Shown: positions 24,140-53,107, numbered from the stretch's first letter. The stretch: 64,000 nt of DNA from an uncultured Candidatus Saccharibacteria bacterium (GCA_964448295.1 CAYUVV010000002.1:19081-83080); one strand, 5' to 3'. Made by a program: numbers and translations. Notes: generated from the sequence alone by a model not told the origin.

Positions 24140-24168
24140 AATGAACAAAAAGAAATTCCAAAAACTAA

Positions 24169-25341: not shown

Positions 25342-25441
25342 TACTTGACTTTTTAACTGCTTTTTGCTACAATAGAAGAGGAGTTTGGTAAGTACCTTGA
25401 TTTTCCTACCTTTTTTCGGCCTTAGGCCGGAGGAGATTGCC

Positions 25442-33374: not shown

Positions 33375-34490
33375 TTATTCTACCACAGGCGGGTTTTCCG
33401 GCGTGACGATGTCTATTTTCCAGCCTGTTAAGCGTGCCGCTAAACGGACGTTTTGGCCGCCCTTACCCACCGCGACAGAAAATTGATCGGCTGGCACCTC
33501 CACTCGCGCTCGACCCGACGCTTCGTCGAGTGTAATGGAGCTGATTTTGGCTGGCGCCAGAGCGTGCTCGATAAAAGTCAACTGGTTTTCGTTCCATTCA
33601 ATAATATCGATCTTTTCGCCGCCGAGCTCGCTCGTAACCGTATTGACCCGCACACCTCGTTGCCCGACGCAGGCGCCAACCGGATCAATGTTTTTATCTG
33701 TTGCGACGACGGCAATTTTGGTGCGCGATCCGGCTTCGCGGGCGATGGCGCGGATTTCCACTGTGCCGTGGGCGACCTCCGGCGCCTCAACGGCAAATAG
33801 TTGTTTTACAAATTGAGGGTGAGCGCGAGATAGGCGGAGGTTGATTGCCCGCGGTGTTTCTTCCACCTTAAACAAGTAGGCCTTGACCCGTTCGCCTTGG
33901 CGATAATGTTCTCCGGGAATCTGCTCTTCATAGGGTAAGAGGGCGGTGGCTCGGCCGAGGTCAACAAAGACGTTGCCCCGTTCAATTTTTTGTACTTTGC
34001 CGTGAACAATTTCTCCCTCGCGACCGGAGTATTCGTTGAGGATTGATCCCTTTTCGGCCTCGCGGAGACGTTGAATGATGACCTGTTTGGCGGTTTGGGC
34101 GGCAATGCGACCGTAATCTTCCTTGGTTTCCAGCGGAAAAACGAGCTCGTCGCCTGTCTTGACGTCGTTTTTGATTTTACGAGCGTCTTCCAGTTTAATG
34201 TGTTGTTCTTCGTTAAAATGAGGGAGGGTGTTTTCTTCCGATTCCGTTTCGCTTTTTTCCTGATCAAACTGGACGTTGGTTTCGTCTACCACCAGTTTAA
34301 CTTGCTCAAAACGAGTGCCCCCTGTTTCCAGATCAAAATGCGCCCGCACCAGCTGGCTTTTTTTACCATAATCTTTCTTATAAGCGGCCACGAGGGCGTC
34401 CTCAATGGCGCCAATCACTTTTTCCGGCGGTAGTCCGCGCTCTTCTTCCAATTGCTCTAAGGACGAGCGCAGAACCTTCAAGTCCATCAT
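33375..34490 (-). CDS. nusA: Transcription termination/antitermination factor NusA (N-terminal, S1 and two KH domains; no C-terminal acidic repeats)
   Basis: MMDLKVLRSSLEQLEEERGLPPEKVIGAIEDAL is a typical NusA N-terminus. KH GQNVRLAARLTGWKIDIV. Confidence 0.9.
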   Translation of the reverse strand: MMDLKVLRSSLEQLEEERGLPPEKVIGAIEDALVAAYKKDYGKKSQLVRAHFDLETGGTRFEQVKLVVDETNVQFDQEKSETESEENTLPHFNEEQHIKLEDARKIKNDVKTGDELVFPLETKEDYGRIAAQTAKQVIIQRLREAEKGSILNEYSGREGEIVHGKVQKIERGNVFVDLGRATALLPYEEQIPGEHYRQGERVKAYLFKVEETPRAINLRLSRAHPQFVKQLFAVEAPEVAHGTVEIRAIAREAGSRTKIAVVATDKNIDPVGACVGQRGVRVNTVTSELGGEKIDIIEWNENQLTFIEHALAPAKISSITLDEASGRARVEVPADQFSVAVGKGGQNVRLAARLTGWKIDIVTPENPPVVE

Positions 34491-34593: not shown

Positions 34594-36441
34594 GTGGCCG
34601 TTTGTTATAATTATTATCAAATCAAAGTGATAATTATGATTCACACACAATCGGCGAAATTTAAATTATCAATGGTCGTTTTAATATTTGCTCTCGCACT
34701 GTGGTTTGGCAGCGTGGGTACTGGGTGGGCGGCGTGGGCGCGGCCGGTGAGCTCGCCCACCGCTTGCGTCAACGGCGATCAGGGTTGCGATCCGCCGATC
34801 AACATATCGAACGCGGCCCAAACGAAGCAGGGCTCACTTGGTATCTCCAACGTGCTGGCTGTTTTTAATGCCGCTTATGCCAAGCAGTTGGCCACTGGCT
34901 CTGGGTTTTTTGACGGTTCGGCGACACTCGATCCTAACGTTGCTCTTCACGTTGACGGCAATTTGCGTTTGAAATTTGGCAGTCCGCAGGCTGGGGATGT
35001 GTTGGTTGCGGCCGAGACTGATGGCACGCTCGGCTGGGAAGATATTAATGACGAAATGCTATGGACGCGCGCCACGGCGGACACGAACGACATTGATATT
35101 TACAACACCGCCGGCGGGGCCGTTGGCGTTCGCACCGGCAATATTGCGTTAAATGACGGCTTGACGGTGAGGGGGGCGCTGGTCCGGTATGACGCTACTG
35201 CGAGCACTTTAACCGGCAACATCGAGACCCACGTTAATTTGGGTAACAACAGTACTACCGGCAACTCTACCAGCGGTTTGTATCCAACAGTCGGCGGCGG
35301 GGACAACAATACGGCGAGCGGGGATTACTCGACGGTGGGCGGCGGCCAGTCCAATTTCGCTACCGGTAATTACTCTTTTATTGGTGGCGGGAGCAACAGC
35401 GCTCATGGTGATTACGACACGGTGGTTGGCGGGGTGGCCAGTGGGGCTGTTTTGCCGACGGTGAGCGGTAGCGTTGGTGGCTACAATTTTCTCGGCGGTG
35501 GCGATAATCTTGATGCTTTTGGCCAGTACAACGTTATACTGGGTGGATTAGACAACAAGATCGGTCAAGATGTTAATAACCGAGCCGATTTTTCCGTCGT
35601 TGGCGGTGGCTCTGGCACCAACACTGTGTATAGCGATTATGGTTCGATATTGGGTGGTAGCAACAACGTGTTAAGCGCTTCGGCGGATTATTCGGTCGTC
35701 GGCGGCGGTTTTAGCAATCAAACTGAATCTCCTCACTCAATAATCCCGGGCGGTGAAAATAACGGAATTGGTTTGGCTAGTCCCTATAGTTTTGTCGGCG
35801 GTAAGGATGCCAACATCGTTGACAACGCTCCCGGAGCGTTCGTGTGGGGCGGCGCGGGCGGGGCGACGGTGGCGACGTCGAATTCATTTGTGATTCATCC
35901 CAACGCCGGGCCGACGGAGGGCTATGTGGGTATTGGTACTGCCGCGCCCACCGCCAAGCTTGATGTGAACGGCAATGTGCGGATTCGGGGCTCGACCGCT
36001 AAACCGCCAGCAGCCGGTTATGTTTTAACGGCGGCTTCAGACAACGGTGATGCCTATTGGGAATCGCCAACAGCGCCGGTTGGGGCTAAGCCGGGGGAAG
36101 GGATTATCACTGTTCGCAATTACTGTTCCGGCACTCCCTTAATCGGCGGCTGTGATGTTGCTTATCAAATCCCTAGTTGCCCGTCAGGTTGGATGGCAAG
36201 CGCGGTGATGTATGAAAAATATGGTTCTCAATACAACCGTGTGGTAACTTGCCACACCGACGCCAATGTCCAAGTGATGACACTGGTTGGTCTAAACAAC
36301 GGCTCTAATCCGGCGCCCAGTTGCCCATCCGCTGATTGGACGGCATGGCCGTCAAGCGGCGTTTGGACTCCCGCTTCTGGTAGTGGCGCGGTGCCTACCG
36401 GCCTTAATCAGGCGCGTCATTGCTACAAGCTAAATACTTAA
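34594..36441 (+). CDS. Secreted adhesin-like protein with Hep_Hag/YadA-head-type repeats (N-x-A-x-G-x-x-S-x-V-G-G), conserved N-terminal Cys motif and C-terminal Cys-rich domain
   Basis: Signal peptide (likely start at Met15, MIHTQ...). N-terminal TACVNGDQGCDPPINISNAAQTKQGSLGIS. Repeats such as NTASGDYSTVGGGQSNFATGNYSFIGGGSNSAHGDY. Overlaps the next gene by 22 nt. Confidence 0.7.
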   Translation: MAVCYNYYQIKVIIMIHTQSAKFKLSMVVLIFALALWFGSVGTGWAAWARPVSSPTACVNGDQGCDPPINISNAAQTKQGSLGISNVLAVFNAAYAKQLATGSGFFDGSATLDPNVALHVDGNLRLKFGSPQAGDVLVAAETDGTLGWEDINDEMLWTRATADTNDIDIYNTAGGAVGVRTGNIALNDGLTVRGALVRYDATASTLTGNIETHVNLGNNSTTGNSTSGLYPTVGGGDNNTASGDYSTVGGGQSNFATGNYSFIGGGSNSAHGDYDTVVGGVASGAVLPTVSGSVGGYNFLGGGDNLDAFGQYNVILGGLDNKIGQDVNNRADFSVVGGGSGTNTVYSDYGSILGGSNNVLSASADYSVVGGGFSNQTESPHSIIPGGENNGIGLASPYSFVGGKDANIVDNAPGAFVWGGAGGATVATSNSFVIHPNAGPTEGYVGIGTAAPTAKLDVNGNVRIRGSTAKPPAAGYVLTAASDNGDAYWESPTAPVGAKPGEGIITVRNYCSGTPLIGGCDVAYQIPSCPSGWMASAVMYEKYGSQYNRVVTCHTDANVQVMTLVGLNNGSNPAPSCPSADWTAWPSSGVWTPASGSGAVPTGLNQARHCYKLNT

Positions 36442-38297
36442 AAATGCCTCGGCGGCTTTTGGTTTTTGGCGGTTTGGCAATAACAGCGGGAGCGTGGTTT
36501 TTTGCTGGCCAACCAGCGGCGGCGGATTGGGTTCCGCCACTTGATTACCCGCCTTTTTGCACCACGAGCCAACCCGGCTGTTTTCTTCCCATTGAGCCGT
36601 CGGGTATTTCCCAATTGAAGTTGGGATCGCTGGGAGTAAGTTCGCTTAACCTGCACAACCGACCCAATACGGCCGACAATTTCGATTTTTACGCGAGCGT
36701 TTTAGGTGTTGGTAACAATTTTATTAACAGCACCAATGGCGCGCCCAAGTACCCACTCGACGTCGAGGGCAATGTTCGGATCGAGCCGGGCGGGGGGGCG
36801 GTGCCGGTCGGGACGGCGCTCGAAGTTCTTCCTAACGGGGTGGACCCCGATGCGGGTGCTTTGGTTGGTTGGGGGAGCAAATATTTTTCTCTTTGGAGTT
36901 CAGCCAGCAACAGCTCGGCCAACAACGGCATTTATAATACCGACGGCGGTGGGGTGGGAGTGAGAACGGGCAACGCCAACCTCGTTAATGGTTTGACAGT
37001 GATGGGGGCGCTCGTTCGTTATGGCGGGACCGCGTTCGTGAATAACCTTTCCGGTTCGCCAACCACTCAAGTTAATTTGAGCACTCAAGGGCAAACCGGT
37101 GGCCAATATTCTTCTCTGCGCGGCGGGTATTTGAACCAAGCGACGGCCAATTATTCCACCGTGATCGGCGGTCGCTCCAATCAAGCCACTGGCGCCAACT
37201 CTTTTGTTGGTGGCGGGCAGGGTAATCGCGCCGTTGGCGTTTACTCGTCGGTGGTCGGTGGTAGTTCCAATCAGGCCAACGGCAATCGTTCGTTTGTTGG
37301 TGGTGGGCGGTCGAACATTGCCTCGGCCCTCGGGACCTATTCCGCGGTGGGTGGTGGCCAATCAAACGTGGCAAGTGGCGCGGGGGCGGTAGTGCTCGGC
37401 GGCCAATCAAACACCGCGAGTGGTGCGAGCTCGGCCGTGCTTGGTGGACGGAGCAATATCGCGAGCGGTAATTATGCCGCCGTGCTCGGCGGCCAATCAA
37501 ACACCGCGAGCGGGATTAATTCGGTCGTGCTCGGCGGCCAGAATAACACCGTGACCACCGCTTACGCCGCCGCCGGTGGCCGCTTAATGCGGGTTGGTTC
37601 GGTGGGGACGTTCGCTTGGGGAAATAATCGCGCTGAGATCGCCGCCAACACCGCCAACTCATTTATTGTACAACCTGATTTCGGCGCCGGTTCCGGCGCC
37701 GTGCCATCTTGGGGTTATGCCGAAGGAGCGATGATGATCGGCACCTCCACACCCTTTACGGCCGGTTACGATGTTCGTCTAAATGTTGATGGGCCGATAG
37801 TGATTCGAGGTGTTACCGGCGCCCTACCGCAGGTTGGCGCGCGATTGACGGCGATTGACGATGCAGGCAGAGCGACCTGGCAAATGCCCCCGGCCTCGCC
37901 GCAGACCACCTACGGCGGCTCAGTTTTTTATATGCGGCGCCAGGACCAAGCTGGCGATCCGATTTCCTGTCCGGCTTATTGGTGCGATGCGAGCAATGGA
38001 GCCGCCGGTTGTGCCGGCACTCCTGGCCAGCCGCCGGCCGCCCAGCCAACAATGACGGAAAAAAGTGGCGGTTTCTCCAACAGCGTGCGGGTTTGTTATC
38101 GCGACGATAAGCGAGTAAGGGCGGTGATGACTACCGCTGAATGTGTGCTTGGGTGCGGTGGCAGCGAAAACGCTCCGCCTAATTGCCCGAGCGGTTTTAC
38201 ATCGGTTTATTCCAACTATAATCAGGGTGGTGAGTATCTTTTGGGAAACTTAATCAAGACCCGCGTCTGTTTGAGTACCGGTTATAACACGCCATGA
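36420..38297 (+). CDS. Second secreted Hep_Hag/YadA-head repeat protein, paralog of the upstream gene; stop overlaps the pilB start (ATGA)
   Basis: Signal peptide. N-terminal PFCTTSQPGCFLPIEPSGISQLKLGSLGVS. Long run of ATGANSFVGGGQGNRAVGVYSSVVGGSSNQANG... repeats. C-terminal CPSGFTSVYSNY...RVC. Confidence 0.7.
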   Translation: MLQAKYLKMPRRLLVFGGLAITAGAWFFAGQPAAADWVPPLDYPPFCTTSQPGCFLPIEPSGISQLKLGSLGVSSLNLHNRPNTADNFDFYASVLGVGNNFINSTNGAPKYPLDVEGNVRIEPGGGAVPVGTALEVLPNGVDPDAGALVGWGSKYFSLWSSASNSSANNGIYNTDGGGVGVRTGNANLVNGLTVMGALVRYGGTAFVNNLSGSPTTQVNLSTQGQTGGQYSSLRGGYLNQATANYSTVIGGRSNQATGANSFVGGGQGNRAVGVYSSVVGGSSNQANGNRSFVGGGRSNIASALGTYSAVGGGQSNVASGAGAVVLGGQSNTASGASSAVLGGRSNIASGNYAAVLGGQSNTASGINSVVLGGQNNTVTTAYAAAGGRLMRVGSVGTFAWGNNRAEIAANTANSFIVQPDFGAGSGAVPSWGYAEGAMMIGTSTPFTAGYDVRLNVDGPIVIRGVTGALPQVGARLTAIDDAGRATWQMPPASPQTTYGGSVFYMRRQDQAGDPISCPAYWCDASNGAAGCAGTPGQPPAAQPTMTEKSGGFSNSVRVCYRDDKRVRAVMTTAECVLGCGGSENAPPNCPSGFTSVYSNYNQGGEYLLGNLIKTRVCLSTGYNTP

Positions 38298-40048
38298 CGG
38301 CCGACAACGAACGGCTAAAAGTTTTTCTCCGCGATGCCGGCTTAGTAGGGGAGAAGGATTTGACGGCCCTGATCGAGAAAGCGGAATCATCCGGCCAGCC
38401 GCTCGATCAGGTACTCCTTGCCAGCGGCAAGGTCTCGGAAGACGAGTTCCGGCGCCTGCACGCCTATCTCCTCGGTATCCCTTTTATCAGTCTACGGAAT
38501 TTGAAGGTGCCGCGCGACGTTCTTTTTTTGATTCCGGAACCGATTGCCCGTCGGCACAACATCGTGGCTTTCAATCGCCGCGGTGAGGTGCTTGAGGTGG
38601 CAATGCTTGATCCAGAGGATCTCGCTTCAATCGAGTTTATCAAGAAAAAAGTTGGTTTGAAAATCCAGTCGCGGTTAACGGACACCGAGTCCATCCGCAA
38701 CCTCCTCCTCCAATACCAGAAAAGTTTGAAAGCCGAATTTGGCGACATCATTCAGCGCGAAACGGCAGCGATCGAGACGAGCACCGCGCGGGGCGGAGCG
38801 GAGCTTGAGGCCAGCCCGAGCGAACTGAAAAAATTGGCCGAGGGTGTACCCGTCGTTAAGATCGTCGACACCCTTTTGTCGCACGCGATTATCCAAAAGG
38901 CGTCCGACATTCATCTTGAGCCCTACGAAAAAGAATTGGTGGTGCGCTATCGCATTGACGGCGTGCTCCACGACGCGATGATTTTGCCGATAATATTGGC
39001 CGCCGGTCTGACGGCGCGAATTAAAATTTTGGCCAACTTGCGTCTGGACGAGAAGCGTTTGCCACAAGATGGCCGTTTCAAGATCGAGGCGCCGGAACGG
39101 GTGTCGTTTCGCGTTTCCGTTTTGCCTACGTACTATGGCGAGAAGGTGGTAATGCGTTTACTGCCGGATACGGTCGAGGGGTTTACTTTGGAGCAATGCG
39201 GTTTTCACGGTGGCGGTTTAGAGCGCTTGCACGAGGGGATGAATTATAAAGCCGGGATGATCCTTGTGACGGGCCCGACCGGTTCGGGCAAATCCACCAC
39301 GCTCTACACCATTCTTGATATTTTGAATAAGCCCGACGTCAACATTTCCACGATTGAAGACCCGATCGAGTATCAGATCAAGCGGATTAACCAAACTCAA
39401 GTTAAGCCGGATATTGGGCTGACATTTGCCGCCGGCCTTCGATCGTTGATGCGTCAAGACCCCGACATCATTATGGTGGGCGAGATCCGCGATGAAGAAA
39501 CGGCGAATCTCGCCATTAACGCCGCCCTCACTGGCCACCTCGTGCTCTCGACCCTGCACACCAACTCGGCGGCGGCCACCGTGCCGCGTTTGCTTGATAT
39601 GGGCGCGGAGGCCTTCCTTTTGGTTTCTACCCTTCGGGTCGTGATCAGCCAGCGTTTGGTGCGCAAATTGTTGCCCACGCGGGAAAGTTATTTCTTAAAC
39701 AAAACGGAAACAAAAATATTGGGCGAGAAGGTTGATCTGGGGCGCGTGCTTGAGGCCTTGCGGAGAGAGCGAGTGGTGTCGCCGGACGCCACCTGGGAAA
39801 AAATCCCCTTTTATCGTCCCAAGCCGTCCGACGAATCAACAGACGGTTTTGCTGGGCGGGTGGGGATTCACGAGGTGATGAAAATTTCGCTCGCGGTGCG
39901 CGAGCTGATTCTTGCCGGCGCGAGTCATGACAAGATCGAAGCGCAAGCCAAGCAAGAAGGAATGTTTACTATGCTCGAAGATGGAATTTACAAAGCGGCG
40001 CAGGGTATTACCAGTTTGGAGGAGGTTTATCGGGTGGTGTCAGAATAA
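38294..40048 (+). CDS. pilB: Type IV pilus assembly ATPase PilB (GspE family) with N-terminal GSPII_E_N domain
   Basis: Walker A GPTGSGKST. Asp box and His box. Typical PilB N-terminus. Confidence 0.9.
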   Translation: MTADNERLKVFLRDAGLVGEKDLTALIEKAESSGQPLDQVLLASGKVSEDEFRRLHAYLLGIPFISLRNLKVPRDVLFLIPEPIARRHNIVAFNRRGEVLEVAMLDPEDLASIEFIKKKVGLKIQSRLTDTESIRNLLLQYQKSLKAEFGDIIQRETAAIETSTARGGAELEASPSELKKLAEGVPVVKIVDTLLSHAIIQKASDIHLEPYEKELVVRYRIDGVLHDAMILPIILAAGLTARIKILANLRLDEKRLPQDGRFKIEAPERVSFRVSVLPTYYGEKVVMRLLPDTVEGFTLEQCGFHGGGLERLHEGMNYKAGMILVTGPTGSGKSTTLYTILDILNKPDVNISTIEDPIEYQIKRINQTQVKPDIGLTFAAGLRSLMRQDPDIIMVGEIRDEETANLAINAALTGHLVLSTLHTNSAAATVPRLLDMGAEAFLLVSTLRVVISQRLVRKLLPTRESYFLNKTETKILGEKVDLGRVLEALRRERVVSPDATWEKIPFYRPKPSDESTDGFAGRVGIHEVMKISLAVRELILAGASHDKIEAQAKQEGMFTMLEDGIYKAAQGITSLEEVYRVVSE

Positions 40049-40051
40049 TCA

Positions 40052-41266
40052 ATGAAATTTAAATTTCGCGCAAAAAATCAAGCCGGAGCGATGGTGGAGG
40101 GTGAGCGAGAAGCGGCTGATCGTTTGGCGCTTGCCCGCGAGTTGCGCCCCGGTGGCTTGACGCTGTTTTGGGCCGAACCCGTCGCCGCACCAGTTGGTTG
40201 GCAAAAACTGGTTGCTCGTTTGACCTTTGGCCGCGTTAAACTCAAAGACAAAATTTTGTTTGCTGGCAACCTGTCGTCAATGCTAGAAGCTGGGTTGCCG
40301 CTCGCGCGAACGCTTGATGTGATTGGGCGTCAAAACACCAACAAGGTGTTTCGGCCAATTCTCGAAACCTTGGCCCAAAAGATTCGCAACGGCGAGAGTT
40401 TTAGTCAGGCGCTCGGTTCTTTTCCGGAAACTTTTCCGGCAGTGTTTGTGGCGATGGTTGCGGCTGGCGAAGAGTCGGGCAAATTGACGGAAGCGTTGGG
40501 AATTGTGCGCCGGCAAATGGAGCGAAGTTACAATCTGCGTCGGCGCGTGCGCGGGGCGATGCTGTACCCGCTGATCATCGTCATTGCCATCGTCATTATC
40601 GCGGTGTTGATGATGATTTTCCTCGTGCCGACACTCACTGGTTTGTTCACCGAACTTAAGGTTGATTTGCCCGTGAGTACGCGAGTAGTGATCGCGATTA
40701 GCAATTTTCTTGCCGGTTACCCGCTAATTTTTTTCCCCAGTTTAATCTTGGTGTTCGCCGCGGGTTGGCGTTTGAGTCGAACGCGTCGCGGCAAGCGTTT
40801 TCTGGCGAGCGCCTGGTTGCGTTTGCCGGTGATCCGCGACATCACGCGCCAGCTAAACTCGGCCGTGATTATGCGCACCCTGTCTTCCTTGCTCGCTTCG
40901 GGCGTGAGTATGGTGGAAACGATTAACATCACGCGCCAAGTGGTGCCTAACCCGTTTTATCAAGAGTCGCTCAATCAGGCGGTGCTCGAAGTAACGCGAG
41001 GTCAGCCATTATCAAAAATTTTTCGCGATTATAACCGGATTTATCCGCCGCTCGTGGGCGAGCTTGTGGAAGTTGGCGAGGAGACGGGCGATTTGCCGAC
41101 CTTGCTCCACAAGGGCGCTCTGTTTTACGAGGGCGAGGTTAATCAGTTGACCAAAAATTTGTCTACCGTGATCGAGCCGGTGCTGATGGTGTTCGTCGGT
41201 TTGGCGGTCGGATTTTTTGCTATTTCGATGATTTCCCCGATTTATTCGTTGTCCAGTAGTTTTTAA
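40052..41266 (+). CDS. pilC: Type IV pilus platform protein PilC (GspF family)
   Basis: Two GspF repeats. Polytopic. Confidence 0.85.
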   Translation: MKFKFRAKNQAGAMVEGEREAADRLALARELRPGGLTLFWAEPVAAPVGWQKLVARLTFGRVKLKDKILFAGNLSSMLEAGLPLARTLDVIGRQNTNKVFRPILETLAQKIRNGESFSQALGSFPETFPAVFVAMVAAGEESGKLTEALGIVRRQMERSYNLRRRVRGAMLYPLIIVIAIVIIAVLMMIFLVPTLTGLFTELKVDLPVSTRVVIAISNFLAGYPLIFFPSLILVFAAGWRLSRTRRGKRFLASAWLRLPVIRDITRQLNSAVIMRTLSSLLASGVSMVETINITRQVVPNPFYQESLNQAVLEVTRGQPLSKIFRDYNRIYPPLVGELVEVGEETGDLPTLLHKGALFYEGEVNQLTKNLSTVIEPVLMVFVGLAVGFFAISMISPIYSLSSSF

Positions 41267-41737
41267 ATGACGAGCAGTTACCGAGGATTGACGGCGGTGG
41301 AACTTCTCGTGGTGGTGGCGATTGTCGCGCTTCTCGCGACGGTAGTGATTATTCCGTTTCGTCGTTTTTACGAAGAACAATCTTTGCGGGCGGCGGCGGA
41401 AACGGCGTTGGCTTTTCTGGCGGAAGCGCGCGCGGCCACTCTGTCTTCGGCGGGCACGGTGGGCGAACAATACGGAGTTCAGTTTGAAAGTGATCGGCTG
41501 ATTAAATTTGCCGGCACCACTTATGGCGGTTTAGGGGCAAACGACGTCGAATATTTGTTACCCGACGGAATAGAACTGACGGGGCCCAGTCTCTCAAGCG
41601 GCGGACGCGAGATTGTATTTGCGCGGCTGACGGGCGCGGCGAGCGCCATCGGCACCATTACCTTTCGTCTGGTCTCCAATCACGGCCGCTTTATCACAAT
41701 CAGGGTTGAACAATGGGGGGTGGCTTATTTAGAATAG
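41267..41737 (+). CDS. Type IV prepilin/pseudopilin (class III signal, G|LTAVE)
   Basis: RGLTAVELLVVVAIVALLA matches the prepilin cleavage/methylation motif with Glu at +5. Confidence 0.8.
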   Translation: MTSSYRGLTAVELLVVVAIVALLATVVIIPFRRFYEEQSLRAAAETALAFLAEARAATLSSAGTVGEQYGVQFESDRLIKFAGTTYGGLGANDVEYLLPDGIELTGPSLSSGGREIVFARLTGAASAIGTITFRLVSNHGRFITIRVEQWGVAYLE

Positions 41738-42222
41738 TGGTTATGAGGTCACGCGGGCGAGGATTTGGTTTGGTGGAGGTGGTCGTCGGCGCGGCGATCA
41801 TCGCGGGACTTGTGGTGGGCGGGGCCTCGGCTTTAGCGCGTTTAACGCGGACGGCGCAGGTTACTTGGCAGGAGAGTCGGGCCTCGTGGTGGCTCGAAGA
41901 GGGAGCCGAGGCTGTTCGCTGGTGGCGAGACGCCGCTTGGGCCAATGTGAGTGATCTGCAGCCGGGGACGCGCTATTACCTAACTTGGTCGGGGAGCAAT
42001 TTTGCCACCAGCACCACCGCGACGCCCCTTAATCCAATTTTTACCCGTTGGCTTGAAACGGCCGAAGTTTACCGCGATGGCAACGGTGATGTCGTGTCGA
42101 GCGGCGGGACGCTTGATCCCGAAACGCGGTTTATTACGCTTGCCGTGGAGTGGTCCGATTTTACCGGCGGGTTGAGAACCAAAAATCTGTCCTTTTATTT
42201 GACCAACTTGTTTGACAGTTAG
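41713..42222 (+). CDS. Type IV pseudopilin/minor pilin (G|FGLVE)
   Basis: RGRGFGLVEVVVGAAIIAGL. Confidence 0.75.
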   Translation: MGGGLFRIVVMRSRGRGFGLVEVVVGAAIIAGLVVGGASALARLTRTAQVTWQESRASWWLEEGAEAVRWWRDAAWANVSDLQPGTRYYLTWSGSNFATSTTATPLNPIFTRWLETAEVYRDGNGDVVSSGGTLDPETRFITLAVEWSDFTGGLRTKNLSFYLTNLFDS

Positions 42223-42739
42223 AATGTTTAAATTTATTCATCGTCGCTCCGCCGCTGGCTTCACTCTGCTTGAGGCCTTGATCTATGCCGCCCTGACGAC
42301 GATTTTGCTCACGGCGACCATAACACTCTTTCTCTCTTTTTCTCGCACCTTCGCTGATTATCGTTTAGGCCGGGCACTCAACCACTCGGCTCGGATCACT
42401 CTCGAATCGTTTGCGCGCGAGGTGCGGCGGGCGGCGAGCGTTGATCTTGGCCAGAGCACTTTTGCGAGTCATCCCGGGCGGTTGGTGTTAAACGATGCTC
42501 TCGGGCATACCCAGGCCGATTTTACTTGGCAAGACGGGACGATTTTCTTAGCGACGGATGGTGGTGCTATGGCATCCACGACGGCCGCCCGAGTGACGGC
42601 GACGAATGTTGTTTACCACTACTTAAGTTCCAACGCGTCGACCGCCGTTCGTCTGGAATTGACCCTCACGGCGAACCAGGGCGATTTAATTAAGAGCGAA
42701 AACTATAGCGCCACCGCGGTTTTGCGCGGTGCCTATTGA
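42212..42739 (+). CDS. Type IV pseudopilin/minor pilin (G|FTLLE)
   Basis: AAGFTLLEALIYAALTTILL. Confidence 0.75.
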   Translation: MTVRMFKFIHRRSAAGFTLLEALIYAALTTILLTATITLFLSFSRTFADYRLGRALNHSARITLESFAREVRRAASVDLGQSTFASHPGRLVLNDALGHTQADFTWQDGTIFLATDGGAMASTTAARVTATNVVYHYLSSNASTAVRLELTLTANQGDLIKSENYSATAVLRGAY

Positions 42740-44504
42740 CCAAACTATGCGAAAAACCGAATTAACAACACGCGGCGGCCAAGTAATTTTGGCGACAGTG
42801 TTGGCTGTGATTATGGCGGCGACGGTAATGGTCGGCGGTTTGGCCTGGCCGGTGGTGCGCGAGTTTAAGGCGGCGCGCGAGGTTTATCAATCGCGAGCCA
42901 GTTTTTTCGCCGCTGAATCTGGTTTGGAAGATGCCTCGTTTCGCATCAAGCGCGGTTTGCCTTACTTATCCGCTTATACGCTGGCAGTGGGATCAAATCA
43001 GGCGGAAATCCGGATTGAGGGAACTGGCCACCTTCGTACCGTGCAATCGGTCGGCGAGGCTGCCACGCGCTTCCGGCAGTTGGAATCCAATCTTAGTCTC
43101 GACGAGACGAGCGCCGAATTTTTCTACGGCGTGCAGGTGAGCGATGGCGGGGTGCAAATCGCCAATAACGCGCGCGTTTTGGGCAACGTTTATTCCAACG
43201 GTAATATTATTGGTAGTAGTAGTGGTTCGGCGTTTATCTCGGGTGACGCGGTGGTGGCCGGCGGCTTGAATTACCCGCCGAACGTTAATTTCGCCGCTCA
43301 CAACAACGATCAACTGTTCGCCAATCTTAATTCGCAAGAGGATTTGGCCCAACCCTTTGTGGCACCGGTGAGCGGCGTCCTGTCTCGGGTTTCGGTGTAT
43401 CTCGCCAAGGTTGGTAATCCCAACACCATCACACTTAAAATTGCCGCTAATAGCGCCACTGATGGTGGTACGCCGGGTGGAACCATCAGCGGCGGTTCGG
43501 CGTCTGTCGCCGCCGCGGGAGTTGGCACCACGCCTTCTTGGGTGCATGTGGCGTTTGCTTCACCACCAACGCTGGTTGCTGGCACCAAATATTGGATCGT
43601 GTTGGACGCAAGCACGGTGAGCGCGATTAATCATTGGAATTGGCGCAAGGATAATAGTACGGGCGAGTCGGGCAGTAATACTTATAAATCATGGAGCAAT
43701 ACTGCCCGGAGATGGTCATCGCCCGGCACCGGTTTTCTCGCTCATCAAGTGTGGATCGGTGGGGCTAATACCCGAATTGAAAAAGTCACAGTTGGGGATG
43801 CTAACACTGGCACCGCCCGAGCGAACCAATTTGAGAGCGTTGTTGTTCATGGCGCTAGTTGCCCCAACAGTTACTGCGTAGTTGATAATCCACCACGCGC
43901 TGAATTGCCGATTTCCGACGGAACGATTCAGGATTGGCGCGATGCGGCGCTTTTGGGCGGAACCTGCGCCGCTCCTGTTTGCGACGCTGGTGGCAATTAC
44001 CACTTATCTAATGGCGCGAGTGGTAGTTTGGGACCTCTGTATGTCCCCGGCGATTTGGAGGTGGACAATAACGCCACCCTTACCCTTACAGGCACAGTGT
44101 GGGTGCGCGGCAATATTGATTTGTCTAATAATTGCCGTCTTAATCTTGATTCTGGTTATAGCCGCAATTCTGGCGTTTTGCTCGCCGATGGTAAGATCAC
44201 GGTTTCCAATAATTGCGGCCTTGATGGCTCGGGCGATCCCGACAGTTATTTAATGTTGCTGTCGGCGCTCGACGCGCCGAGCGAAGACGCGATTGTGGTG
44301 GATAACGGCGCGACGGGTGTAATTTATTATGCCGGCAAAGGTCGAATCCGTTTCTCCAATAATGCTTATGCCAAAGAAGCGACGGCCTACGGTTTGACGC
44401 TTGATAATGGCGCGACAGTCGAGTACGAAAGCGGGCTAGCCAACATCAACTTTACTTCCGGCCCCGGGGCCTCATTTGAATTACTTGATTGGTATGAATA
44501 TTAA
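42729..44504 (+). CDS. Large pilus-associated protein (591 aa), N-terminal TM helix but non-canonical prepilin motif; beta-helix-like repeats, possible tip adhesin or PilX/PilY-type
   Basis: TTRGGQVILATVLAVIMAATVMV lacks Glu at +5. Gly/Asn/Ser repeats (NNARVLGNVYSNGNIIGSSSGSAFISGDAVVAGG). Last gene of the pilus operon. Confidence 0.5.
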   Translation: MPIDQTMRKTELTTRGGQVILATVLAVIMAATVMVGGLAWPVVREFKAAREVYQSRASFFAAESGLEDASFRIKRGLPYLSAYTLAVGSNQAEIRIEGTGHLRTVQSVGEAATRFRQLESNLSLDETSAEFFYGVQVSDGGVQIANNARVLGNVYSNGNIIGSSSGSAFISGDAVVAGGLNYPPNVNFAAHNNDQLFANLNSQEDLAQPFVAPVSGVLSRVSVYLAKVGNPNTITLKIAANSATDGGTPGGTISGGSASVAAAGVGTTPSWVHVAFASPPTLVAGTKYWIVLDASTVSAINHWNWRKDNSTGESGSNTYKSWSNTARRWSSPGTGFLAHQVWIGGANTRIEKVTVGDANTGTARANQFESVVVHGASCPNSYCVVDNPPRAELPISDGTIQDWRDAALLGGTCAAPVCDAGGNYHLSNGASGSLGPLYVPGDLEVDNNATLTLTGTVWVRGNIDLSNNCRLNLDSGYSRNSGVLLADGKITVSNNCGLDGSGDPDSYLMLLSALDAPSEDAIVVDNGATGVIYYAGKGRIRFSNNAYAKEATAYGLTLDNGATVEYESGLANINFTSGPGASFELLDWYEY

Positions 44505-45270
44505 AAATAAAAAGCTGATCGTTGCGAATTGGAAGATGAATCCCGAAACTCCGCGCGAGGCGCAGGAGTTGTTGAGTCGGACGAAAGCGGTGGCCCGTCG
44601 CGCGCGGCGGGCGCAGGTGGTGGTTTGCCCGCCCGCGGTGTTTTTGAGCCGCTTGCGCGCCGGTGAGAATTTGCAACTAGGCAGTCAAGATGTTTTTTTT
44701 GAACCCGTTAGTTCCGGCCCGCACACTGGCGCCGTGTCTGCCGTTCAGTTGAAACACACCGGCGCCGAGTGGGCGCTTCTTGGTCACTCGGAGTCACGAG
44801 CGCGCGGCGAGACAGATGAATTGATCAATCGAAAAATTAAGGCGGCGCTAAAAGCGGGTTTGCGCATAATTGTCTGCGTGGGAGAACGAGCGCGGGATGC
44901 CGCTGGTGATTATCTGCAGGCCGTTCGTCAAAATTTGGAAGCGGCTACCGCGGATCTTCGTCGAGCAGACTTTACTCGTCTCGTCGTGGCTTACGAACCG
45001 CTCTGGGCGATTGGCGATCAAGCCGTCGGGGCCGATACCCCCGCCGGTTTTCTCGAGCAAGCCATTTTTATCCGTCGGGTGATGAGCGCTTATCTCTCAC
45101 CGCGGCAGGCGAGCGAACTCTCGGTTCTCTATGGCGGTTCGGTTGACGAAAAAAACGCTGCCGCTTTTTTGAGTGTGGCTGATGGCTTGCTTGTTGGTCG
45201 CGCCTCGTTGCGAGCCGACAAATTTTCGTTGATTGTGCGGGCGGCCGACGAATTGCCAAACAATGCTTGA
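44494..45270 (+). CDS. tpiA: Triosephosphate isomerase
   Basis: ANWKMN, GHSESR and catalytic EPLWAIG. The ORF track starts 6 codons earlier. Confidence 0.9.
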   Translation: MNIKNKKLIVANWKMNPETPREAQELLSRTKAVARRARRAQVVVCPPAVFLSRLRAGENLQLGSQDVFFEPVSSGPHTGAVSAVQLKHTGAEWALLGHSESRARGETDELINRKIKAALKAGLRIIVCVGERARDAAGDYLQAVRQNLEAATADLRRADFTRLVVAYEPLWAIGDQAVGADTPAGFLEQAIFIRRVMSAYLSPRQASELSVLYGGSVDEKNAAAFLSVADGLLVGRASLRADKFSLIVRAADELPNNA

Positions 45271-46417
45271 TCTCAAGCGTTTCTCGCTCTCCCAACTGGA
45301 ACATCAAGACCTTGCGGGCCAGCGGGTTTTGGTGCGACTTGATCTCAATTTGCCGTTAGCTAACGGCCAAATCACTGACGATTTTCGTCTGGCACGGAGT
45401 TTGGGCACTTTGCGGTTTTTGCTTGCGCGCGGTGCGAAGGTTTTGGCGGTGAGTCATCTAGGTAGTGACCCGCGCGCCTCGCTGTCGGGTGCCGCTAAAG
45501 CGTTAAATCAATATCTGCCGACCGAGTTTGTGCCCGACTGGAGAGACGGATTGCCCGCCGCACCGCGCAATCGGCCGTCGGGCGCTATTTGGCTGTTGGA
45601 AAACCTGCGCCGCGATCCGGGTGAGGAAACGAATGACCCCGCTTTCGCTGGTTCTTTAGCCGCCCTGGCTGATATTTTTGTTAACGAGGCTTTCGCCGTT
45701 TCGCACCGACCGCACGCTTCCGTTGTGGGTCTGCCTCGTCTCCTCCCGTCTTTTGTGGGAGAAAATTTTGCCGCGGAAGTGGCTGGGTTGTCGGGTCTTT
45801 TTTCTCCTGCCCACCCCTTCATCATTATTCTTGGCGGGGCCAAGTTTGGCACCAAACTTCCTCTGGTGGAAAAGTTTTTGCCGTTAGCCGATAAGATTTT
45901 TATCTACGGCGCGCTGGCTAACGTTTTTTTCCGTTCTCTGGGGATCGAGACCGGCCAATCTTTGGTGGACGGTGGAGCCGTGATTGATCGTAATCTTTTG
46001 CGCCACCCCAAAATCATTTTGCCGGTGGACGTGCGCGTGCGGGTTGGCGCTCGGGTAGCTATTAAAAAACTGTCGGCGATTGAAGCGTCCGACAATATTC
46101 TCGATATCGGCTTGGAGTCAATCGAAAAATTGGTGGATGAGATCGCGTTGGCCCGCACGATTCTCTGGAATGGTCCAGTGGGATTGTGCGAGCAAGGTTT
46201 CACCGGTGGAACGAAATCTTTGGCTCAACTTGTGGCCGCGAGCCGGGCCCGTACCGTTATCGGTGGCGGCGACACCGTCGCCGCCGTGGCCGGCCTCGGC
46301 CTGCTCGATCAATTCGGTTTCGTCTCTACCGGCGGCGGTGCCATGCTCGATTTTCTTGCTCGGGGCACTCTCCCGGGGATTGAGGCCTTGGCTCAATCGC
46401 CCACGTTTAAAATTTAA
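45263..46417 (+). CDS. pgk: Phosphoglycerate kinase
   Basis: VRLDLNLP...KVLAVSHLG. The internal Met (MLDLKRF) is the likely start; the ORF track starts at 45233. Confidence 0.9.
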   Translation: MLDLKRFSLSQLEHQDLAGQRVLVRLDLNLPLANGQITDDFRLARSLGTLRFLLARGAKVLAVSHLGSDPRASLSGAAKALNQYLPTEFVPDWRDGLPAAPRNRPSGAIWLLENLRRDPGEETNDPAFAGSLAALADIFVNEAFAVSHRPHASVVGLPRLLPSFVGENFAAEVAGLSGLFSPAHPFIIILGGAKFGTKLPLVEKFLPLADKIFIYGALANVFFRSLGIETGQSLVDGGAVIDRNLLRHPKIILPVDVRVRVGARVAIKKLSAIEASDNILDIGLESIEKLVDEIALARTILWNGPVGLCEQGFTGGTKSLAQLVAASRARTVIGGGDTVAAVAGLGLLDQFGFVSTGGGAMLDFLARGTLPGIEALAQSPTFKI

Positions 46418-46815: not shown

Positions 46816-48519
46816 ATGAAGCATTGGCGGCTCCGTCCTGAACCACCGGCCGATTTTTTGCCCACGGAGTTGCCGCTCTTGCGTCGCTTGCTCCACACTC
46901 GTGGCGTTGCCAATGACGTTGCGGCTCGCACTTGGCTTGAGCCGGATTACGGGCGCGATCTCCATGATCCGTTCTTGCTTACCGATATGGTGGTGGCGAC
47001 AGAACGCCTCCAACGCGCGCTTGCGATAGGAGAAAAAATCGCAATTTTTGGCGATTATGATGCCGATGGAGTTTTGGCCACGGCTGTGCTCGCTGAGGCT
47101 TGGCGGCAGTTAGGCGGGAGCGAGCCGGAAATTTATATCCCTGATCGCCATGAGGAGCAGTATGGTTTGAGTGAGACAGTTATTCGCCGTCTCGCGGCGC
47201 AGGGGATTAAACTTTTGGTAACGGTTGACTGCGGCATTAGCAACGAAACCGAAGTGCGACTGGCCAACGCGCTCGGTTTGGAAGTGATCGTGACGGATCA
47301 CCACCTGCCGCCGCCGGTTCTACCGTCCGCTTTGGCTGTGATCAACCCTAAGCGTGAAGGTGATCGGTATCCCGAGAAGATGCTCTGTGGGGCGGGAGTG
47401 GCGTTCAAGTTGGTTCAGGCGCTCGCAATGTCAAGGTTAAACCTTGACATAAAGGAGGGGTGGGAGAAGTGGCTACTGGATTTAGTGGCTGTCGCGACTG
47501 TAGCGGATATGGTTCCTATCACTGGCGAGAACCGCGCCCTTGTCCATTTTGGTCTAAAAGTTTTGCGCCAAACGCGCCGACCTGGTTTGCGCGCGTTAAT
47601 TCGCGAACTGCGTTTGCCGTTTTCAGCTATTAGCGAGGACGACATTGGTTTTATGATCGGCCCGCGGTTAAACTCAGCCTCGCGGATGTCGCACGGTTCG
47701 GAAGCCTATCGCTTGGTGACGACGCTGGATGAAAGTGAGGGGGCGGCGTTGGCGGCTCATCTGATGGCGAAAAATCAGGAACGTCGAGATCTGGTATCCG
47801 TCATTTTGGAAGCTCTGAATGGCTACGCGGCGACCATGGGCGATCGGCCGGTTTTGGTAGCTGGTGATGCCACGTGGTCGCTTGGCGTGCTCGGCTTAAC
47901 CGCCAATCGGGTGGTGGAGAAAATTGGGCGTACGACATTCCTCTGGGGTAAAAACGGTCAAGGATTAGTGCGTGGCTCCTGCCGCTCGGCAGGTGAGGTG
48001 AACGTGGTCGAATTGATGCGGGCCGCTGGCGGGCGCGAATTTTTCACCGATTTTGGCGGTCATCGGTTGGCCGGCGGTTTTTCTCTTCCGGCCGAACGCT
48101 TGCCTGAACTTGCCCCGCGCTTAAACGAAGCTCATGCCAAACTCGAACCCCTACCTGCCACGGACGATGTTGTGCTCGCTGATGCGGAACTGTTTCCCCC
48201 GGACATTACTTGGACTTTCTACGATCAGGTGGCGCGATTGGCGCCGTACGGATTGGATAATCCCAAGCCAATTTTCTGGTTGCCGCGTTTGACGATTGCG
48301 CGCGTTCGGGTGTTTGGGCGCGAGCAGGCTCATCTTGGGCTGGAATTTGCCGGTTTTCCTGTTGAAGCGATCCGGTTTTTTGCCGGACAAAACGAGTTTG
48401 CCAGTGTGCGTCTGGCGATGGGCGAGCGGATTGATCTTTTAGCCAATCTGGAGAAAAGCTTTTTCCGCTCGCGGCCGGAATTGCGTTTGCGGATTGTGGA
48501 TCTGCGCCCCGCCGAGTAG
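46816..48519 (+). CDS. recJ: Single-stranded-DNA-specific exonuclease RecJ
   Basis: DHH motifs (DYDADGV, TDHH) and DHHA1 (GGGH-like). Confidence 0.9.
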   Translation: MKHWRLRPEPPADFLPTELPLLRRLLHTRGVANDVAARTWLEPDYGRDLHDPFLLTDMVVATERLQRALAIGEKIAIFGDYDADGVLATAVLAEAWRQLGGSEPEIYIPDRHEEQYGLSETVIRRLAAQGIKLLVTVDCGISNETEVRLANALGLEVIVTDHHLPPPVLPSALAVINPKREGDRYPEKMLCGAGVAFKLVQALAMSRLNLDIKEGWEKWLLDLVAVATVADMVPITGENRALVHFGLKVLRQTRRPGLRALIRELRLPFSAISEDDIGFMIGPRLNSASRMSHGSEAYRLVTTLDESEGAALAAHLMAKNQERRDLVSVILEALNGYAATMGDRPVLVAGDATWSLGVLGLTANRVVEKIGRTTFLWGKNGQGLVRGSCRSAGEVNVVELMRAAGGREFFTDFGGHRLAGGFSLPAERLPELAPRLNEAHAKLEPLPATDDVVLADAELFPPDITWTFYDQVARLAPYGLDNPKPIFWLPRLTIARVRVFGREQAHLGLEFAGFPVEAIRFFAGQNEFASVRLAMGERIDLLANLEKSFFRSRPELRLRIVDLRPAE

Positions 48520-49106: not shown

Positions 49107-49484
49107 CTAATTTCTAAAATAGTGGCGAGTATGAGCGCGGGCGGCTCGGAGAAAGTCGTGGCAGAAGGTTTCCGCCACGCTTGGTTCGAAAAATTTGCAA
49201 GAGAAGATATCAACGAAGGCGCGGTTCTTAACTTCGTCGAAGTGCATAGTGATGGACGATGTTTCGATAAACTGCATCGCCGAGTAGCCCTCAAGCTCTC
49301 CCTCGGCAAAACGCTGGATGAGTGGCGCGCCGAATTGTTTCATCGCGATGGTGGCGCACAAACCATCTATTAACCCGCGGATTTTTTGCGGGTCGCGAAT
49401 AGTCGGGGGATGGCAGTCGTAGAGATCAATCGAGGCCACCATCCCCCAACACTGTTCCGATTCGTAGTCTTCTTTTAGACTCAT
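49107..49484 (-). CDS. speH: S-adenosylmethionine decarboxylase proenzyme (SpeH-type, pyruvoyl-dependent)
   Basis: GMVASIDLYDC ... FIETSSITMHF (Ser processing site) ... VDIFSCK. Confidence 0.8.
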   Translation of the reverse strand: MSLKEDYESEQCWGMVASIDLYDCHPPTIRDPQKIRGLIDGLCATIAMKQFGAPLIQRFAEGELEGYSAMQFIETSSITMHFDEVKNRAFVDIFSCKFFEPSVAETFCHDFLRAARAHTRHYFRN

Positions 49485-51033
49485 GGGGCTGGGAAATCTG
49501 ATTATAGAAAAAATGTCGGCAGAAGTTAAGACTGTTGATAACCTTAACCGGGTCGACTGGCGTTTTACGGCCGCGGTAATTGGCTTAAGTTTGGGCGTGT
49601 TTGGCGCCGGTGTTTTCCCGGCTGGCGGTTTGGGCCTTGCGCTCTTGTGGCTGTGGTTAGCTTTGTTGTTTGGGCTGATCTGGCCGCGGCCAATTTTGGG
49701 CGTTTTCTTTTTGTGCCTTGCCCTGGGTTGGGGTCGTTGGCTGTGGTACGAGGAGCAAAGACCGCCCGCCTCTTGGCCGGCGGGGGAAACGCGTGAGTTT
49801 GCTGCTTTCGTAGCCGAACCGCCCGAACCGCGGGAGACGGGGCAACGTCTGACTTTGCGCCCGCACGGTGAGCAATTCTTGGTTCACGTCTACGCGCCCA
49901 CTTATCCGCCGATCGCTCTTGGTGATGAGTTGCTGGTCTCGGGTGAGCCGGTGCGGCCAGAGGTGTTTGAGAGCGGAACGGGGCGGGTAGTTGATTACCC
50001 GGCTATTCTACGCCGCGCCGGTGTTTATTATCAAATGTTTAATCCGCGCTTGACTGTGACGAAACCAGCCGCCGCCTATCCCATGCGCCGCACATTGGAT
50101 AGAATCAAGAATATATTTGAAAACGCCGTGGGAAAAGTTTTCCCCGAGCCGAGCGCCGCTTTACTTCACGGCATACTTTTGGGTAGCCGCGCGGCTCTTG
50201 GCGTCGATTGGCAAGAGCGCTTTCGCGTTACCGGCTTAATTCATATTGTTGTGCTTTCTGGCTATAACTTAACGGTGGTGGCGGAGGGCTTGCGTCGCCT
50301 GCTCGGTTTTTTACCCCGCCATTTTTCTGCCTTATTTTCTCTGAGCGCGCTCGTCTTGTTTACCTTAATGACCGGGGCGGGTCCGGCGACGGTGCGGGCG
50401 GCGCTGATGGCCGGTTTGGCTCTCGTTGCTGGCGCTCTGGGTCGCGCGCCGGCGGCGCGCCGTGGCCTGTGGGCCGCGGGCCTGCTGATGGTTTGGCACA
50501 ATCCGGCGATTCTGCGCGACGACCTCGGCTTTCAACTCTCGTTTCTCGCGACGGCCGGTTTGCTCTATCTCTCGCCGGTTCTCGAGAACTTTTTAGTTCG
50601 CTCGCGATTTTTATCTGGCTATTTGCCACGTTCGTTTGCTGGTCTCGCGGCGGCGACTCTCTCTGCCCAGATTTTTATCTTGCCGTGGGTGGTGTACCGG
50701 ATCGGCGCGTGGCCGACTTACGCGCTTTTCACCAATTTACTCGTTTTGCCTTTTGTGCCGGCAATTATGTTTGGCGGATTTTTCGCTGTTTTGGCCGCGC
50801 TCACGAGTGTGGTTTTGGGCCCGGTGGGAACAGCGCTCGCGTGGATTACAATGACCCCGGTTTATTTTATGTTGCTGGGTTTACTTACGTTAGTGCGGTG
50901 GGTGGCGCTCTGGCCGTGGGCCAACCTTGAGTTGCCGCCAATCCCGTGGACGTTTGTCGTTATCGCCTACTCTCTTTTGGGCTGGTGGGCGATAATGAAA
51001 AACAATGTTGGGCATTCCACGCGCCGAACTTAA
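49483..51033 (+). CDS. comEC: DNA internalization competence protein ComEC/Rec2, membrane channel part (DUF4131 plus competence domain)
   Basis: LLHGILLGSRAALGVDWQERFRVTGLIHIVVLSGYNLTVV. Polytopic. Confidence 0.85.
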   Translation: MGLGNLIIEKMSAEVKTVDNLNRVDWRFTAAVIGLSLGVFGAGVFPAGGLGLALLWLWLALLFGLIWPRPILGVFFLCLALGWGRWLWYEEQRPPASWPAGETREFAAFVAEPPEPRETGQRLTLRPHGEQFLVHVYAPTYPPIALGDELLVSGEPVRPEVFESGTGRVVDYPAILRRAGVYYQMFNPRLTVTKPAAAYPMRRTLDRIKNIFENAVGKVFPEPSAALLHGILLGSRAALGVDWQERFRVTGLIHIVVLSGYNLTVVAEGLRRLLGFLPRHFSALFSLSALVLFTLMTGAGPATVRAALMAGLALVAGALGRAPAARRGLWAAGLLMVWHNPAILRDDLGFQLSFLATAGLLYLSPVLENFLVRSRFLSGYLPRSFAGLAAATLSAQIFILPWVVYRIGAWPTYALFTNLLVLPFVPAIMFGGFFAVLAALTSVVLGPVGTALAWITMTPVYFMLLGLLTLVRWVALWPWANLELPPIPWTFVVIAYSLLGWWAIMKNNVGHSTRRT

Positions 51034-52722: not shown

Positions 52723-52969
52723 AGACTTGTCCCCTTGCCCCCAATCAGTCAAATGGCTGGTTGGGGGCTCTGTGTGTAAAATGATTTTGGGTTGTTAAAC
52801 CGGCTTCGCACAATGTGAGGTAGCGGTTTACCCACTGCTAGAAACTGCTTGTTCAATCCTAGCGAGTTTAGACTCGGCACACTGCTCCCGAGGAGGAGAA
52901 AATTCAGATGATTTTGCTTGTTTTTTCAGGTAAGGTCGTCGGTGCGATTGACGGGGTGGGGCAAAAGGC

Positions 52970-53091: not shown

Positions 53092-53107
53092 TCGCGAACG
53101 GGCCGGC

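Follow-up and report, generated by a model that had tools for sequence, protein, structure and literature searches.

Two tandem genes, here named A1 and A2, encode secreted, fibre-like proteins and stand directly upstream of the type IV pilus (T4P) gene pilB in a 64,000-nucleotide stretch of DNA, hereafter the window, from an uncultured, ultrasmall bacterium of the Patescibacteria (Candidatus Saccharibacteria; GCA_964448295.1, CAYUVV010000002.1:19081-83080). The evidence favours a lineage-specific insertion of surface-protein genes, expressed with the pilus, over a cargo that is carried by the pilus. On balance, it is probable that A1 and A2 form a lineage-specific pair of adhesin-like fibres, which is exported by Sec and co-expressed with the pilus, the pilus machinery not being used for their export.

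The gene pair and its junction with pilB

The pair and the genes packed around it are as follows (aa, amino acids).

34636-36441, plus strand: A1, 601 aa, secreted fibre-like protein; the list of open reading frames (ORFs) confirms a long ORF here
36444-38297, plus strand: A2, 617 aa, paralog of A1 with the same layout
38294-40048, plus strand: pilB, T4P assembly ATPase (T2SSE 7e-121, TIGR02538 1.6e-160)
40052-41266, plus strand: pilC, platform protein (T2SSF 3e-56)
41267-41737, 41713/41743-42222 and 42212/42224-42739, plus strand: three prepilin (minor-pilin-like) genes with N_methyl and GspH/GspJ-type matches
42729-44504, plus strand: PilX-like large protein, 591 aa, with a choice-of-anchor R domain (NF041539 1.4e-08)
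44476-45270 and 45233-46417, plus strand: tpiA and pgk, which continue the gene string in tight packing
33375-34490, minus strand: nusA, divergent from A1, the conserved left border of a variable slot

A1 and A2 are 35% identical over their full length (E 6e-61). From A1 through pgk, the ORF list gives an unbroken plus-strand string with gaps or overlaps of only a few nucleotides (nt); downstream of pgk lies a convergent gene of the HIT family. The start of pilB overlaps the stop of A2 by 4 nt as ATGA (38294-38297), as an earlier reading of the sequence alone (the sequence-only reading) had claimed. The same reading had A1 overlapping A2 by 22 nt, which is probably an artefact of taking the longest ORFs, as these begin at GTG 34594 for A1 and at TTG 36420 for A2. 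The start of A1 is most likely ATG 34636, because a conserved extended -10 element sits downstream of GTG 34594. Similarly, A2 most likely begins at ATG 36444, 2 nt past the stop of A1, because in a close relative (locus L001) the second gene begins directly after the stop of the first.

Upstream control elements and co-transcription

Two elements in front of A1 are shared with L001.

34603-34611, plus strand: TGTTATAAT, an extended -10 element resembling a promoter, 25 nt before the A1 ATG and kept in L001
34566-34577, plus strand: TTATCCCCGTTT, a 12-nt motif that stands unchanged before the A1 ortholog of L001, despite a different upstream gene

The first of these was found by eye and by its conservation in L001, and it would serve as a promoter upstream of A1; a scan for two-hexamer sigma-70 promoters gave none on the plus strand upstream of A1. 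The second may be a site for a regulator or part of the -35 region. In relatives, TGnTATAAT is found 20-35 nt upstream of pilB itself, which is the same distance as that of TGTTATAAT from A1. In the window and in L001 the equivalent element lies upstream of A1, and there is nothing comparable between A2 and pilB. This arrangement makes it plausible that A1 and A2 are co-transcribed with pilB in this lineage. The scan for terminators from A1 to pgk found none that was convincing, its 29 terminator-like matches against 22.7 expected being background. The single transcript through pgk that the sequence-only reading had proposed is plausible at most: the conserved -10 element before A1 and the lack of a convincing terminator are in line with it, the promoter that pilB has of its own in relatives and a weak promoter-like sequence before pilB, taken up below, are not.

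Judged from the sequence of a further locus (L089), co-transcription with pilB does not appear to be a general property of the family to which A1 and A2 belong. In L089 (2900-2985), a clear hairpin terminator, cacacatctccacagatgtgtg, is followed by a T-run and then by TGATATAAT, all between the family gene and pilB. The hairpin and the promoter of pilB would therefore make the two genes separate transcription units there.

The pilus operon itself carries pilB, pilC and three prepilins, as had been read from the sequence. The N-termini of all three prepilins show G followed by (F/L)xxxE, with N_methyl matches in the Pfam/NCBIfam scan. The 591-aa protein had been called pilin-like, which is true only loosely, for it has a hydrophobic PilX-like N-terminus without the G/FxxxE motif. 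Its place behind the pilins is kept in relatives, and by analogy it is likely the tip or the priming partner of the minor pilins. Minor pilins and the PilX-like protein are thus present, and no obvious major pilin is found among the encoded proteins.

Architecture of A1 and A2

The layout of A1 is as follows.

aa 1-32: signal peptide
aa ~33-76: N-terminal module (N-motif)
aa ~215-400: degenerate beta-roll
aa ~430-470: connector, containing IGT..P..KL.V.G
aa ~490-601: Cys-rich C-terminal domain

Both proteins begin with a Sec-type signal, consisting of an n-region, about 18 hydrophobic residues and an AxA-like site, from which pattern the cleavage was read. The N-terminal module of the mature protein contains cysteine and has the form W..P...PP.C..G.PGC..P[IV]N.S...Q.K.G.L. 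A beta-rich region before the repeats ends in IYNTDGGxVGVRTG...GLTVxGALVRY, and the segment after them reads F.WG....SF(I/V)(I/V).P....G..(G/M)IGT..P...(K/R)L.V.G..(V/R)IRG....P..G..LTA....G.A.W..P. The connector motif GIGT..P..KL.V.G...I.G....G..LT...G.A.W is present in both and is repeated in other members of the family. The C-terminal domain holds 6-8 cysteines. The cysteine counts of the whole proteins are even (8 and 10), and glycine, alanine, serine and threonine make up 43-44% of each, which points to an extracellular character.

At the C-terminus of A1 and A2, neither the sequence nor the Pfam/NCBIfam scan gave a hydrophobic tail, an LPXTG motif or an autotransporter anchor. Sec signals without a visible autotransporter anchor had been noticed at the outset, and both points hold; the search for C-terminal anchors or sortase-like signals that had been suggested found none. 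It was also considered whether A1 and A2 are type IV pilins themselves. This was rejected, as they have no G followed by (F/M)xxxE and no N_methyl match, and a regular-expression search was negative.

The repeat block is encoded in A2 as follows.

37086-37673, plus strand: DNA encoding the A2 left-handed beta-roll, with a repeat period of 45 nt

The period corresponds to 15 aa. A2 has about 9-11 regular units, and those of A1 are degenerate. AlphaFold2 (AF2), with which monomers only were modelled, gave the regular 15-residue beta-roll of A2 (aa 215-410) a predicted local distance difference test (pLDDT) score of 97-98; the structure prediction that the sequence-only reading had called for thus returned the expected roll, as a monomer. 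In a sequence search of the PDB, A2 matched the head of UspA1 (3pr7) with E 1.7e-17. The best Foldseek matches of the roll in the PDB were all heads of trimeric autotransporters, namely UspA1, CbpF, BpaC, BoaA and AtaA. At the level of fold, the repeat block is therefore modelled as a left-handed beta-roll of the YadA-head kind. The label of Hep_Hag/YadA head repeats, given to it earlier, agrees with the UspA1 match and with the predicted fold, but not with Pfam, whose Hep_Hag and YadA models do not match A1 or A2. The sole Pfam match of the repeat is LbR_Ice_bind (PF21300), which lies below threshold (20.1 bits against a cutoff of 30). In a search of 5.8 billion proteins, the homologs of the repeat alone were mostly 'tail fiber domain' proteins, which end in Peptidase_S74 and begin differently from A1 and A2.

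Outside the roll the models are less regular. The C-terminus of both proteins looks like a soluble, disulfide-rich beta domain. The C-terminal domain of A1 is predicted to contain beta strands (pLDDT 70-88), and the N-terminal module has no regular fold (pLDDT 70-80). Besides the signal peptide and one 13-residue helix, the models have no long helices.

A family defined by the N-terminal module

A profile search with the N-terminal 220 residues against 1.84 billion cluster representatives returned 406 proteins (E <= 1e-3). Most of these match only positions ~15-135, that is, the signal peptide and the module with the consensus AAWTAPLSAPPTCTSGNPGCDAPINVSSTAQTKSGSLGI, for which there is no Pfam or NCBIfam model. 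The hidden Markov model (HMM) of this N-motif family recovers A1 with E 9e-27 and A2 with E 1.4e-18. One named member comes from Candidatus Falkowbacteria and the closest relative from Candidatus Saccharibacteria. By their sequence, A1 and A2 belong to an unannotated, apparently Patescibacteria-specific family of surface proteins. Most members are 110-450 aa long, and their shafts are highly diverse (collagen-like, Gly-rich or built of the repeated connector). The Cys-rich C-terminal domain and the connector recur in several other members, and the beta-roll shaft with tandem duplication is found in only three lineages.

Full-length relatives number only three: the L001 pair (P0121 and P0002) and P0122. 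The last is encoded on a short contig (L002) that also has a tandem pair, so that the duplication predates these lineages. A scan of the genome collection with a four-sequence alignment found only the L001 contig, and a scan of the Joint Genome Institute (JGI) metagenomes found no relative of the full architecture.

At a distance of 18 kb from the pilus genes, the window itself has a third member of the family (15023-16579, minus strand; 518 aa; HMM E 1.2e-16). Before this gene stands a 115-aa ORF (16613-16960, minus strand) with one transmembrane (TM) helix and a repeated 'TPAEQARVLxxL' tail. This is one instance of a recurrent two-gene cassette, found at seven loci, in which a single-TM protein of ~110-130 aa with a helical, Gln/Glu-rich tail is encoded directly upstream of an N-motif gene. 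The architecture of the partner is common to all, and the sequence similarity is weak, at 18-24%. A1 and A2 are without this partner, whose places are as follows.

Window 16613-16960, minus strand: single-TM cassette partner
L007 165-500: single-TM cassette partner
L010 1685-2011: single-TM cassette partner
L089 1568-1897: single-TM cassette partner
L090 9570-9956: single-TM cassette partner
L091 9569-9961: single-TM cassette partner
L087 3855-4223: single-TM cassette partner

The slot between nusA and pilB in relatives

A search of metagenomes with PilB gave 80 loci (910 kb in total). Contigs L002 and L004-L006 are too short for informative neighbourhoods. In the clade with 55-65% PilB identity, the backbone runs clpP-tig-(hypothetical gene)-ppa-nusA on the minus strand, pilB-pilC-three pilins-PilX-like-tpiA-pgk on the plus strand, the HIT gene on the minus strand and recJ on the plus strand. 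It is kept in L008, L009, L013-15, L022-24 and L038; in L089, too, tpiA and pgk stand behind the pilus genes. The tpiA-pgk tail is therefore an old feature of the block. Since tpiA and pgk are packed equally tightly and the whole block is conserved, adjacency is weak evidence for a shared mechanism or function.

In most relatives nusA directly abuts pilB, the slot being empty (L008, L009, L012, L013, L018, L019). It holds a small transmembrane ORF with an N-motif protein of 195-319 aa in L007, L010 and L089, other secreted proteins in L016, L017 and L020, and two-component genes in the sister clade; zinc-ribbon proteins are also among its contents across relatives. The large A1-A2 pair is found there only in the window and in L001. 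The synteny that the sequence-only reading had proposed to look for in related genomes recurs in L001, where the 4-nt overlap with pilB is kept behind a different upstream gene. It does not recur in the other relatives, whose slot is empty or otherwise filled. Between the window and L001, PilB is 85% and PilC 83% identical, against 66% for A1 and 60-63% for A2. The faster divergence of the pair is typical of exposed surface proteins.

In the 910 kb of PilB flanks, N-motif ORFs were found only in L001 (two), L007, L010 and L032, and for four of the five the next gene downstream is pilB. Together with the window and L089, this position is occupied in five related loci (window, L001, L007, L010, L089). 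As all of these belong to one PilB clade (60-85% identity), they possibly go back to one or two events, maybe to a single ancestral one. Five members of the family were sampled on long contigs. L089 is again directly upstream of pilB, and L088 comes right after nusA-pyrophosphatase (PPase)-tig-clpP; the other three (L087, L090, L091) have no pilus genes within 5-10 kb of the N-motif gene. The family as a whole is not bound to pili and is, in this sample, mostly encoded away from pilus genes. The earlier reading had taken homologs consistently encoded elsewhere as what would speak against a pilus link, and most sampled members, though not all, are indeed encoded away from such genes.

Nevertheless, genes for surface proteins show a recurrent tendency to lie on the 5' flank of this pilus operon. 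A distant low-GC relative (L077 1156-6028; PilB 39% identical) encodes an 817-aa beta-roll protein with a signal peptide and the same post-roll motif. This gene and that of a very Cys-rich, secreted protein of 761 aa directly precede pilM-pilN-pilO-pilB-pilT-pilC, which is on the same strand, and neither protein has a Pfam match. By its sequence, this locus appears to be an independent parallel of a beta-roll gene placed before a T4P cluster.

A proposed explanation and its rivals

Patescibacteria are commonly considered to have no outer membrane. On that view, the lack of an autotransporter anchor is to be expected, and secretion assisted by the pilus is unnecessary. We propose that A1 and A2 arose as tandem paralogs and are modular surface proteins exported by Sec. 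Placed between the extended -10 element and pilB, they would be co-transcribed with pilB, pilC, the minor pilins and the PilX-like gene, and also with tpiA and pgk. On a cell surface without an outer membrane they would act as fibre-like, probably oligomeric adhesins, by analogy with YadA-type heads and S74 fibres. They could be retained by the N-terminal module or by an uncleaved signal anchor, and the Cys-rich C-terminal domain may be the distal binding end. If made jointly with the pilus, the fibres would adhere to a host cell or surface at the time of pilus contact. Epibiotic growth of cultivated Saccharibacteria needs both T4P and several separate non-pilus adhesins (PMC10633639, PMC11623550).

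Several points weigh against this explanation. A weak TATAAC, found 5 nt before the pilB ATG and within the 3' end of A2, may be an internal promoter of pilB. Read from the sequence, the N-terminus could equally well be an uncleaved membrane anchor. The confident part of the AF2 models covers about one third of each protein. The C-terminal domain of A1 has no significant structural match in the PDB, so that the label 'adhesin' is an analogy. Lastly, the full architecture occurs in no more than three lineages among 1.84 billion representatives, a rarity that leaves the conservation of the link between the pair and pilB resting essentially on one close relative.

It is unlikely, though a serious contender, that A1 and A2 are neutral neighbours of the pilus genes, that is, ordinary envelope or surface proteins, such as a structural fibre or a coat protein, which landed in a permissive slot, were joined to pilB merely as the genome became compact and do not cooperate with the pilus. 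The equally tight packing of tpiA and pgk, the high variability of the slot, which holds anything from nothing to two-component, zinc-ribbon or other secreted proteins, and the N-motif family being encoded mostly elsewhere are all as would be expected for such neighbours. However, secreted or surface proteins recur in the slot (L007, L010, L016, L017, L020, L089 and L001), the pair is still joined to pilB in L001 though the upstream gene has changed, and L077 offers a parallel.

Display or secretion by the pilus, in which A1 and A2 are recruited by a minor-pilin/PilX-like tip or pushed out by the T4P, with the N-terminal module docking, as the sequence-only reading had suggested in outline, is a good deal less probable. 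It would resemble TcpF or CofJ of type IVb pili, or the tip adhesins PilC/PilY1. The pair carries classical Sec signal peptides, there would be no outer membrane to cross with the help of a pilus, and most sampled family members (L087, L090, L091 and window 15023-16579) are away from pilus genes. The N-motif gene of L089 is set apart from pilB by a terminator and by a promoter that belongs to pilB, and the five adjacent cases, coming from one PilB clade, may be a single ancestral event. Furthermore, a regular-expression search for the prepilin motif in 269 homologs of the family or the repeat found it in none except one chance match. These points have to be set against the 4-nt overlap kept in L001, the presence of N-motif genes upstream of pilB in five loci and their near absence from the other ~900 kb of flanks, the independent beta-roll gene before the T4P cluster of L077, and an operon that has minor pilins and a PilX-like protein with no obvious major pilin. 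A related and still more doubtful proposal is that the N-terminal module is a docking or anchoring signal that couples diverse fibres to the T4P, for instance to the minor-pilin/PilX-like tip, which would make A1 and A2 interchangeable, pilus-displayed adhesins.

Remnant prophage tail fibres, suggested by a repeat block common to 'tail fiber domain-containing proteins' and by the many repeat-only homologs with Peptidase_S74 (PF13884), some of them so named, are hardly credible: A1 and A2 have no S74 domain, PHROGs gave no tail-fibre match, tblastn against 50,697 phage records gave no match, nusA and pilB border the pair, neither an integrase nor phage genes being present in the flanks, and the N-terminal module belongs to a cellular Patescibacteria family, so that this origin, foreseen in the sequence-only reading as a cryptic phage, is effectively refuted by PHROGs, the phage search and the gene neighbourhood.

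Other features in the window

A complete diversity-generating retroelement is present at 51970-54477.

52585-52704: variable repeat, at the 3' end of a 250-aa ORF (51970-52722) that has no Pfam match
52972-53091: template repeat, 83% identical to the variable repeat, every core mismatch being A in the template
53467-54477: reverse transcriptase ORF (RVT_1 7e-21), downstream of the repeats

At about 16000-25500 lies an island of low GC content (0.45-0.49 against ~0.55), which is bordered by tRNA genes and was probably acquired by horizontal transfer or is mobile. One of its ORFs (17865-18785) resembles a tyrosine recombinase by sequence alone.

21837-23705: N6 DNA methylase
24169-25047, minus strand: IS1595-family transposase

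The competence channel ComEC is found as two overlapping ORFs; the gene may be split or frameshifted, or the arrangement may be programmed. One has the Competence/DUF4131 domain (49483-51033) and the other the metallo-beta-lactamase domain (51005-51892).

46816-48519: RecJ, just upstream of the ComEC ORFs

At 1973-6042 (minus strand), a 1047-aa protein without a Pfam match adjoins a 309-aa protein with a bacterial TSP3 (calcium-binding) repeat; both are possibly further surface proteins.

Comparison with known systems

The closest likeness in fold is to the YadA-like heads (Ylhead) of trimeric autotransporter adhesins (UspA1, 3pr7/3ntn; CbpF, 9gh4/9gh5; BoaA, 3s6l; AtaA, 3wp8), which have the same left-handed parallel beta-roll made of 14-16-residue repeats rich in G, N, A and S. 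In contrast to these, A1 and A2 have no coiled-coil stalk, no neck and no C-terminal anchor in the form of a 12-stranded beta-barrel, and their N- and C-terminal modules are unrelated. That the pair are trimeric autotransporter adhesins (type Vc) themselves was considered and rejected because the stalk and the anchor are absent: no YadA_anchor match was obtained at E <= 0.1 with Pfam/NCBIfam, and no coiled-coil stalk or neck was found. A full-text literature search found no paper that links the candidate phyla radiation with trimeric-autotransporter-type proteins, except for one incidental co-mention.

The S74 'tail fiber domain' proteins, which are widespread in environmental bacteria and likely fibre-like, have the repeat block in common with A2 (35-50% identity over 25-43% of A2). 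They differ in having a ..INYQGRLTD.. N-terminus and a C-terminal S74 intramolecular chaperone, whereas A1 and A2 have neither. The ice-recrystallisation-inhibition protein of Lolium perenne (PF21300, 3ult), a weak PDB match, has the same beta-roll geometry. It is, however, a monomeric plant protein, and there is no reason to infer ice binding for A1 and A2.

Proteins that work with pili offer another comparison. TcpF and CofJ are secreted by type IVb pili (T4bP), and PilY1/PilC are T4P-associated non-pilin proteins. Like A1 and A2, these proteins and PilX1/PilX2 are encoded in or next to pilus operons and are implicated in adhesion. They are, however, encoded with or after the minor pilins, or their dependence on the pilus is demonstrated, whereas A1 and A2 lie upstream of pilB and carry Sec signals. 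The large non-canonical 'PilX' pilins of Nanosynbacter lyticus TM7x (PilX1/PilX2) are proposed pilus adhesins (PMC11623550). By analogy of position, it is the 591-aa protein, and not A1 or A2, that would be their counterpart in the window.

What sets this locus apart is that a beta-roll of the YadA-head type appears in a setting other than that of an autotransporter, and in a lineage commonly considered to have no outer membrane. It sits on a family-specific N-terminal module, is combined with a Cys-rich distal domain and seems to be tied to the pilus promoter. Patescibacteria live attached to other microbes, and their known means of recognising and holding hosts are mainly T4P and a few adhesins of cultivated Saccharibacteria. 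The locus also brings to light a protein family of hundreds of clusters, for which the databases have no model. Its fibres would be candidate determinants of host specificity if they cooperate with the pilus; otherwise the locus still serves to show that genes packed tightly into one operon of a compact genome need not share a mechanism. If the N-terminal module were to dock to the pilus, it would amount to a modular 'pilus cargo' system in bacteria without an outer membrane.

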